NCBI RefSeq assembly: GCF_030013595.1
Contig: NZ_CP122768.1
Source of the DNA: Escherichia coli
Lineage (GTDB): Bacteria; Pseudomonadota; Gammaproteobacteria; Enterobacterales; Enterobacteriaceae
Direction: 5' to 3' (one strand)
Length of the DNA: 64,000 nt
Made by a program: the position numbers. Below, in pieces: positions 62,101-64,000 of the stretch. Each line of letters starts with the position of its first letter. Position 1 is the stretch's first letter.

Positions 62101-64000
62101 AAACTCGGTGCCTTGCCTTACCCGGTTGGTGCAGAGTCGAAATATGAAATCCCGCCGCTCTTTTATCGACTTTCCGGAACGTTTCGCCAGGCGAATCCGC
62201 AGTTAGAACATTGCGCGATTCGCATTAACCCAAATCGCAGCGGTGAAGAGACGGTGCTGCGGATTTTGCGTGAGAGTATTGCCAGTATTTAATCTTGTGC
62301 ATGATGTTTTCGAAAAGAATGCAGAAATAAATACGCCCTCGGGTAACCCCGAGGGCGTCAGGCAATTAAACCGGTGTTAGCCGATTTCTGTCAGAGACTT
62401 ACTGTGCAGTAGGACCGCAACCGCCAATGATTTTAGAAATAGAAATTGCCGGGTGCAGCAGGTAGTCGTAAGAGCAGTTCTTATCACGGTTTTCAATATG
62501 ACCAGTACATGCAGTTAACGTAGCCAGTACTGCGCCTACCAGTGCAACTTTAATAAATTTGTTCATTTACATTCCCTATGTATTATATATTAATTAATAT
62601 TCATTGATTATATGAATATAAGCAGACTGCTCATTAAGAACGATACAGGAATATTTAATTAGCGTCAGTGAGTGAATGGCTTAATTTTGTAAGTCGCTGT
62701 AACGGTGAATATAACCCATTAGCAGATAATATTTATTAAGGGGTTATGTTTTATTTGCTGAATATATAAAAAGAGTCATTAAGAAGGCCAGAATTCTCTG
62801 GCCCGGGTTACATTAATGGTTGGAGAACCAGTTCAGTTTATCGCGCAGGCCAACAACACGACCAATAATAATTAGCGATGGACTGTTCATTTGCTGCGCC
62901 AGTTCGCCCAGCTGTGTGAGCGTACCGTCAATCACGCGCTGCGTGACTGCTGTTCCGTTTTCGACAATTGCCACCGGCATTTCGCCAGGCATACCGTGTT
63001 CAATCAGCTTTTGCTGAATAGTCGCAGCCTGATTCAGCCCCATATAGAACACCAGCGTTTGTTTTTCTGCCGCCAGGTTTTCCCAGTCCAGCTCGCCACC
63101 AGTTTTTAAGTGTCCGGTAATTAAGCGCACGCTCTGGGCATAATCGCGATGCGTGAGCGGAATACCCGAATAGGCAGAGCAACCAGAAGCTGCGGTAATA
63201 CCCGGAACCACCGAGAACGGAATACCCGCGTTGCACAGTGTTTCCAGCTCTTCTCCGCCACGCCCGAAAATAAACGGATCGCCGCCTTTCAGACGCACCA
63301 CGCGTTTACCTTTTTGCGCTTCCCGCAGCAAGATCTGGTTAATCTCTTCCTGCGGTACGCAGTGGTATCCCGCGCGTTTGCCGACGAAAACGCGATCAGC
63401 ATCGCGGCGTACCAGATTCATAATATCGTCAGAAACCAGACGGTCGTAGACCACCACATCAGCCTGCTGAATTTGTTGCAGACCTTTCAGTGTCAGCAGT
63501 CCGGCATCGCCCGGACCTGCACCAACCAGCACCACTTCACCGCGATGGTCGAGCGGTTCGTTGATTAACTGTTCGGTGGTTTCAGTAATGGCTTTCTGAT
63601 CGTTGTTGGCCAGCGACTGCGCCAGGCGGTCGTTAACGAACAATTTCTCCCAGAAACGGCGACGCTCACCCATCGTGGCGAACTGTTGTTTCACTCGCCC
63701 GCGTAATTGCCCGGCGTATTTCGCTACCTGGCCCAGATGTAACGGCAGCTGTGATTCGAGTTTTTCGCGCAACAGGCGCGCCAGAACCGGAGAGGTGCCG
63801 CCAGAGGATACCGCGACCATGAGCGGTGAGCGGTCAATAATCGACGGCATAATAAAGCTGGCGGCTTTCGGCGCATCGACCACGTTACAGAAGATGCGAC
63901 GAGCTTCAGCGGCTTCACTGACGCGCTGGTTAAGCGCGTCATCATCCGTCGCAGCAATTGCCAGCCAGCAGGTGTCGAGAAGGCTTTCATCAAATGGCCC

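Follow-up and report, generated by a model that had tools for sequence, protein, structure and literature searches.

The window, by which we mean the whole 64,000-nucleotide stretch of Escherichia coli DNA analysed here, ends inside the siroheme synthase gene cysG, which is neighboured by the small lipoprotein gene yhfL and then by yhfS, lying convergent to yhfL at a distance of about 100 bp (Table 1). yhfS is the final gene of the yhfZ...yhfS cluster; the rest of the cluster is found upstream in the window, in the order yhfZ-yhfY-yhfX-yhfW-php-yhfU-yhfT-yhfS, and is followed further upstream by trpS. The gene calls were based on ORFs, Pfam and tblastn with the K-12 proteins, and all of these were concordant. 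In the tblastn comparison, YhfS is 96% identical to its K-12 counterpart at the amino acid level (92.4% for the yhfS nucleotide sequence), YhfL is identical (100%) and the available part of CysG is 99.7% identical over 395 residues; the RefSeq annotation of a near-identical genome agrees on yhfL. An earlier note on this DNA had described yhfS as followed after about 100 bp by yhfL and then by cysG, and this order is correct, the spacer being 106 bp long.

Table 1. Features at the yhfS-cysG junction, in window coordinates
Feature	Coordinates	Strand	Description and basis
yhfS	61207..62292	+	ORF; Pfam YhfS-like_C and Aminotran_1_2; PLP-dependent aminotransferase-fold gene
yhfS-yhfL spacer	62293-62398		106 bp, stop codon to stop codon; from ORFs, RefSeq annotation of a near-identical genome agrees
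Stretch without K-12 counterpart	62294..62322		29 bp (blastn)
Hairpin and T-run	62333..62358	-	G+C-rich, 11-bp stem (terminator scan); predicted terminator
yhfL	62399..62566	-	55-aa lipoprotein, signal peptide ending in LTAC; Pfam DUF4223, E=5e-38; ORF
yhfL-cysG spacer	62567..62812		246 bp, 31% GC; cysG stop to yhfL start
cysG, 3' part	62813..64000	-	siroheme synthase, truncated by the window end; annotation of a near-identical genome

The yhfS-yhfL spacer folds as RNA with an energy of -36.8 kcal/mol (z = -4.4). It contains a hairpin followed by a T-run, located between the two convergent genes, which is predicted to be the intrinsic terminator of yhfL; in K-12 the same hairpin is kept upstream of frlA, and it can be aligned across all the Escherichia forms described below. 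An Rfam scan of the whole window at gathering thresholds gave no match at 62293-62812, and no sigma-70 match was obtained within 62100-63000 by the promoter scan.

In K-12 MG1655 (NC_000913.3) the gene order is cysG-yhfL-frlA-frlB-frlC-frlD-frlR-yhfS, with yhfS convergent; the frlABCDR operon is thus located between yhfL and yhfS, just as the earlier note had stated. In the account given by PMC5996543, which cites Wiame et al. 2002 and Wiame & Van Schaftingen 2004, these K-12 genes are responsible for the catabolism of fructoselysine and psicoselysine. The two loci occupy the same interval and share the flanks cysG, yhfL, yhfS-yhfZ and trpS at 92-97% identity, but 29 bp of the window stand opposite 5,242 bp of K-12 (L001 5693-10934). 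In blastn, homology between the window and K-12 ends exactly at the yhfS stop (62293), which marks the left border of the difference, and returns at 62323; from there to 64000 the two sequences align at 97% identity, the AT-rich yhfL-cysG spacer included. The K-12-specific segment comprises the frlA promoter region, frlABCDR, a REP element and a BoxC-like repeat. The main claim of the earlier note, namely that the frl operon is absent between yhfS and yhfL, is confirmed by this comparison and by tblastn of the Frl proteins: FrlA, B, C, D and R gave no match at E<=1e-3 anywhere in the 64 kb, and the permease FrlA, the SIS deglycase FrlB, the epimerase FrlC, the PfkB kinase FrlD and the GntR/UTRA repressor FrlR are all five missing from the window. 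The note was equally right that no frl remnant is left: the tblastn search of the 64 kb was negative, and in the spacer, word matches of the 29 bp to the K-12-specific segment are at chance level.

The same note had called the flanking spacers AT-rich, as is typical of a variable insertion point. The description applies to the yhfL-cysG spacer, with 31% GC, and fails for the yhfS-yhfL spacer, which has 47% GC in a window of 52% GC overall; the interpretation does not hold, since the difference from K-12 lies at the yhfS stop codon and the AT-rich spacer is conserved between the window and K-12. The variable point is the yhfS-yhfL spacer, of ordinary composition.

The ends of the K-12 segment display neither a target duplication nor significant microhomology. 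The motif ATTTAA found at its two ends was considered as a target-site duplication or microhomology and rejected as a chance occurrence, and an apparent extension of the homology, 'GTGAAAATATTTT' versus 'GTGAACGATGTTTT', was rejected on the same ground; when the K-12-specific part upstream of frlA was locally aligned with the 3' end of yhfS plus the 29 bp of the window, the score was 15.0, versus 15.2 +/- 2.1 for shuffled sequences. A genomic island or mobile insertion was also discarded, since the segment holds only frlABCDR and the REP and BoxC-like repeats and has no mobility genes, and so was a foreign composition, its GC content (50-58%) resembling that of the flanks. A replacement of 29 bp versus 5,242 bp that lacks duplication, mobility genes and odd GC gives no direction to the event, so the junction itself cannot tell gain from loss.

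Other differences from K-12 are scattered over the window. About 710 bp between envZ and pck (32131-32841) are absent from K-12 and represent an IS200-family insertion, with a 169-aa ORF on the minus strand (32235-32744) matching Pfam Y1_Tnp, an IS200-like transposase (E=1e-36), and an Rfam STnc490 match of 146 bits at 32703-32826. Positions 1-2810 have no K-12 counterpart beside glpD, where K-12 carries yzgL, and contain the end of a chaperone-usher fimbrial cluster, with ORFs for a subunit-like protein of 174 aa (66-590), a chaperone-like protein of 267 aa (532-1335) and a 383-aa protein with a Pfam Fimbrial domain (1328-2479); this cluster is followed by the Rfam sRNA ES036 (2858-2900). At about 54740 the window is without the extra 130-bp REP-type repeat pair that K-12 has between trpS and yhfZ, and a copy-like match (81%) to that repeat pair is found at 2811-2945. 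Intergenic lengths also differ from K-12 at 18557, where about 65 bp are missing, and at 22513-22615, where about 100 bp are different.

The operon could in principle reside at another chromosomal locus or on a plasmid, a circumstance that the earlier note itself had named as able to overturn its claim. As a stand-in for the source genome we used HCP5S3_I2, a complete genome from pig faeces in the UK, which has 4 mismatches to the window in 10.8 kb. It was searched at megablast sensitivity, at which copies below about 85% identity would escape, with a chimeric query in which the junction is joined to 601 bp of frlB from K-12; the query matched a single place, with no frlB detected elsewhere in the genome. 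A single place was likewise matched in the best 40 frl-less genomes and in all 23 of the 23 frl-less genomes sampled down the ranking, whereas two or three places are matched in frl-positive genomes. In addition, frlA-D gave no plasmid match and are present at a median of one copy per genome, and the genomes with frlA-D (3,300) and those with the frl-less junction (2,107) add up to 5,407, not above the 5,426 complete E. coli genomes surveyed. A relocated operon is therefore very improbable. Even less credence can be given to a collapsed or misjoined contig, as the same sequence runs across the junction in two independent complete genomes and the same architecture recurs in thousands more.

Indeed, the absence of frl from this position is an already published, common gene-content variant, and there is nothing unusual in it. 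The contiguous frl-less junction was found in 2,107 of 5,426 complete E. coli genomes, frlA-D in 3,300 and yhfW-yhfT in 5,075, so that three forms of the cysG-trpS interval can be recognised in the species: yhf only, as in the window (about 39%), both modules, as in K-12 (54-55%), and frl only, as in O157:H7 (about 6%); genomes with neither frl nor yhf are at most 19 of the 5,426. Phylogroup B2 has been reported to be without the frl pathway (PMC5996543; PMC13001218), and Nissle 1917 and APEC O1 are among the named frl-less strains. These frl-negative B2/ExPEC strains have the arrangement of the window, yhfS and yhfL being separated by 106 or 107 bp and followed by cysG, and their spacer is homologous throughout, but their flanks are only 94-95% identical to those of the window.

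The O157:H7 form is the reciprocal of the window: it occupies the same interval and has the same yhfL, terminator hairpin and cysG, but frlABCDR is present, yhfS-yhfZ are missing and frlR abuts trpS. The missing cluster, equivalent to 54722-62292 of the window, is lacking in O157:H7 and O55:H7-type genomes, about 351 of the 5,426. In O157:H7 TB21-1 (L085 10044-11006), frlR is followed by a REP element and a BoxC-like repeat, with trpS 15 bp beyond; frlD is a pseudogene with an internal stop in this strain. A deletion running from the repeats that follow frlR to those that follow trpS was considered as the source of the frl-only form and set aside, since the repeats are not alignable, and the 15 bp next to trpS match none of the trpS-downstream sequences examined. 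cysG is 98% identical between O157:H7, which has frl only, and an O145 strain, which has yhf only.

The particular version of the junction carried by the window is rare, the closest non-clonal alleles, one of them in an O102:H6 strain, being 97.7% identical. The allele of the yhf cluster (55800-62292) is likewise rare and divergent, with yhfW-yhfT at least 99% identical in only 2 of 5,426 genomes and 95-97% identical in all others; in general, yhfS is only 91-94% identical among E. coli strains, which is nearly as much divergence as between Escherichia species. In the core region at 44000-48000, 13 genomes are at least 99% identical. Since this region also has few close relatives, the source lineage as a whole is uncommon.

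Such rarity, with only 2-3 of 5,426 genomes at least 99% identical in the region, is what would speak for a recent deletion of frlABCDR in the source strain or its immediate lineage. Against this, however, the identical junction is present in 2,107 genomes with flanks that differ by up to 8%, no frl remnant is left, and the spacer has homologs in other Escherichia species, which a new deletion would not remake; a recent deletion is thus scarcely tenable. The entire yhfS-yhfL spacer, with its 29 bp, can be aligned by MAFFT between the window and seven other sequences, namely those of Nissle 1917, the O145 strain, the Tanzanian isolate PRO_A-1534-6M-A_ESBL, E. whittamii, MOD1-EC7003, SCPM-O-B-8794 and E. 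albertii. According to distance matrices of cysG, yhfS and yhfT, the last four each represent a species-level lineage of their own: identity to E. coli is about 93-94% for E. whittamii, MOD1-EC7003 and SCPM-O-B-8794, and 81-85% for E. albertii (84.7% for the yhfS nucleotide sequence). The 29 bp are conserved in frl-less E. coli, in E. whittamii, in E. albertii and in the two other Escherichia lineages, and the divergence of the spacer is in step with the distances between species. As at least four other species-level lineages of Escherichia have this junction and a homologous spacer, the frl-less junction has a single origin, which goes back at least to the age of the genus and demonstrably to the E. 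albertii split; being shared across species, it is no deletion private to the source strain. We therefore consider, with a probability of about 85%, that the window carries a frl-less, yhf-only allele, one of the three arrangements of E. coli, which is old, of single origin and not the product of a recent deletion.

The interval was also compared in other genera. A scan with YhfS, covering one genome per species, found the yhf cluster beside cysG without frl in about 25 further Enterobacteriaceae species, among them members of Citrobacter, Enterobacter and Buttiauxella, as well as Cedecea, Klebsiella spallanzanii and others; in Citrobacter spp., an Enterobacter sp., Buttiauxella and others the order is that of the window, with yhfS converging on yhfL and cysG and no frl. 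The scan returned no YhfS matches from E. fergusonii, E. marmotae or E. ruysiae, and no species-specific FrlD cluster was seen for these three species. Conversely, where frl is found in other genera it occupies the same interval, convergent with trpS, and differs from the window in that the yhf cluster is absent. The order is cysG-yhfL-frl-trpS in Pseudocitrobacter, cysG-frl-trpS in a Citrobacter and in Yokenella, cysG-frl-yhfL-trpS in Cronobacter and Franconibacter, and frl-trpS in Sodalis. The presence of yhfL is variable, and it can be on either side of frl depending on the genus. Outside Escherichia, frl and yhf did not co-occur in the cysG-trpS interval in any of the approximately 35 loci sampled; within this genus they are combined in K-12-type E. 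coli and in the cryptic E69-type lineage, whose frl genes are 91-96% identical to those of K-12, like the flanks.

A recent import of frl from one of the sampled genera was rejected, since the frl genes of Cronobacter, Citrobacter and Pseudocitrobacter are no closer than the flanking genes. In the Cronobacter comparison FrlA and FrlB are both 89% identical, versus 84% for CysG and 94% for TrpS, and between O157 and the Citrobacter locus frl is 80.2% identical at the nucleotide level, with flanks at 80-86%. As the divergence of frl between genera is about that of the flanking core genes, frl is probably an old resident of this interval and not a recent foreign import.

The earlier note had proposed that aligning the junction with K-12 and other strains would decide between an insertion in K-12 and a deletion in this strain. 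The alignment rules out a strain-level deletion; the K-12 form, for its part, unites two old modules. On balance, the K-12 composite of frl and yhf is somewhat more probably the derived state: the composite is restricted to Escherichia among the sampled loci, the frl-less junction is present in E. albertii, the most divergent species sampled, and the junction is demonstrably older, dating at least to the split of E. albertii, than the composite, which can be traced only as far as the split of the E69-type lineage (about 94%). The K-12 arrangement would then have arisen by bringing frl, from a related lineage that already had the module in this interval, to a position beside yhfS. The likely route would be recombination anchored in the conserved yhfL-cysG flank, with a single illegitimate join at the stop codon of yhfS; later, homologous recombination in the flanks may have passed the alleles from one lineage to another. 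Two findings count against this order of events. frl diverges between genera about as much as its flanks, a pattern that an ancestor with both modules and differential loss thereafter would likewise produce, and the composite is itself old, as indicated by the similarity of E69-type and K-12 frl.

The opposite direction, an ancient loss, is possible though clearly less probable. It supposes that an ancestor of Escherichia, or an older one, had both modules in the K-12 order, that frl was deleted once early in the genus and that the other genera each independently kept one module only. In its favour, both modules diverge between genera in step with the flanking core genes, as vertical inheritance predicts; a deletion is also mechanistically easier than a precise gain, and the composite goes back at least to the separation of E. 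coli from the E69-type lineage. On the other hand, no genus outside Escherichia has both modules among the approximately 35 loci sampled, E. albertii, the most divergent species sampled, has the frl-less junction, and the 29 bp beside the yhfS stop in the window are without a counterpart in the composite, so that a simple deletion would not yield them. A derived K-12 composite is therefore preferred. A broader and rather speculative proposal, to which we attach a low probability, is that the cysG-trpS interval is an ancient cassette-exchange locus of the Enterobacteriaceae, with two catabolic modules, frlABCDR and the uncharacterised yhfZYXW-php-yhfUTS, as alternative occupants that are swapped via the conserved flanking DNA and brought together in Escherichia alone. 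If this were true, the mutual exclusion of the two outside Escherichia could be a sign that yhf acts on a related substrate, such as another glycated or modified amino acid, which would make the frl and yhf modules ecological alternatives.

The direction of the event also bears on how frl-negative strains are described, and the wording according to which B2 strains are "dispensing" with the Frl enzymes (PMC5996543) may have it the wrong way round. The contribution of the present analysis is a modest one: a view at the level of the junction, in which the frl-less state is an old allele of single origin, spread across Escherichia species, rather than the result of repeated loss.

Fructoselysine is an Amadori compound derived from the diet. 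Having no transporter FrlA, kinase FrlD, deglycase FrlB, epimerase FrlC or repressor FrlR, the source strain is predicted not to grow on fructoselysine or psicoselysine, a prediction drawn from gene content and from genome-scale models of frl-negative strains (PMC5996543). In E. coli the frl genes have been identified as repeated targets of adaptive mutations during colonisation of the mouse gut (PMC12021133; bioRxiv 10.64898/2026.05.27.728231); thus, the presence or absence of the operon would affect the nutrient niche that is open to a strain.
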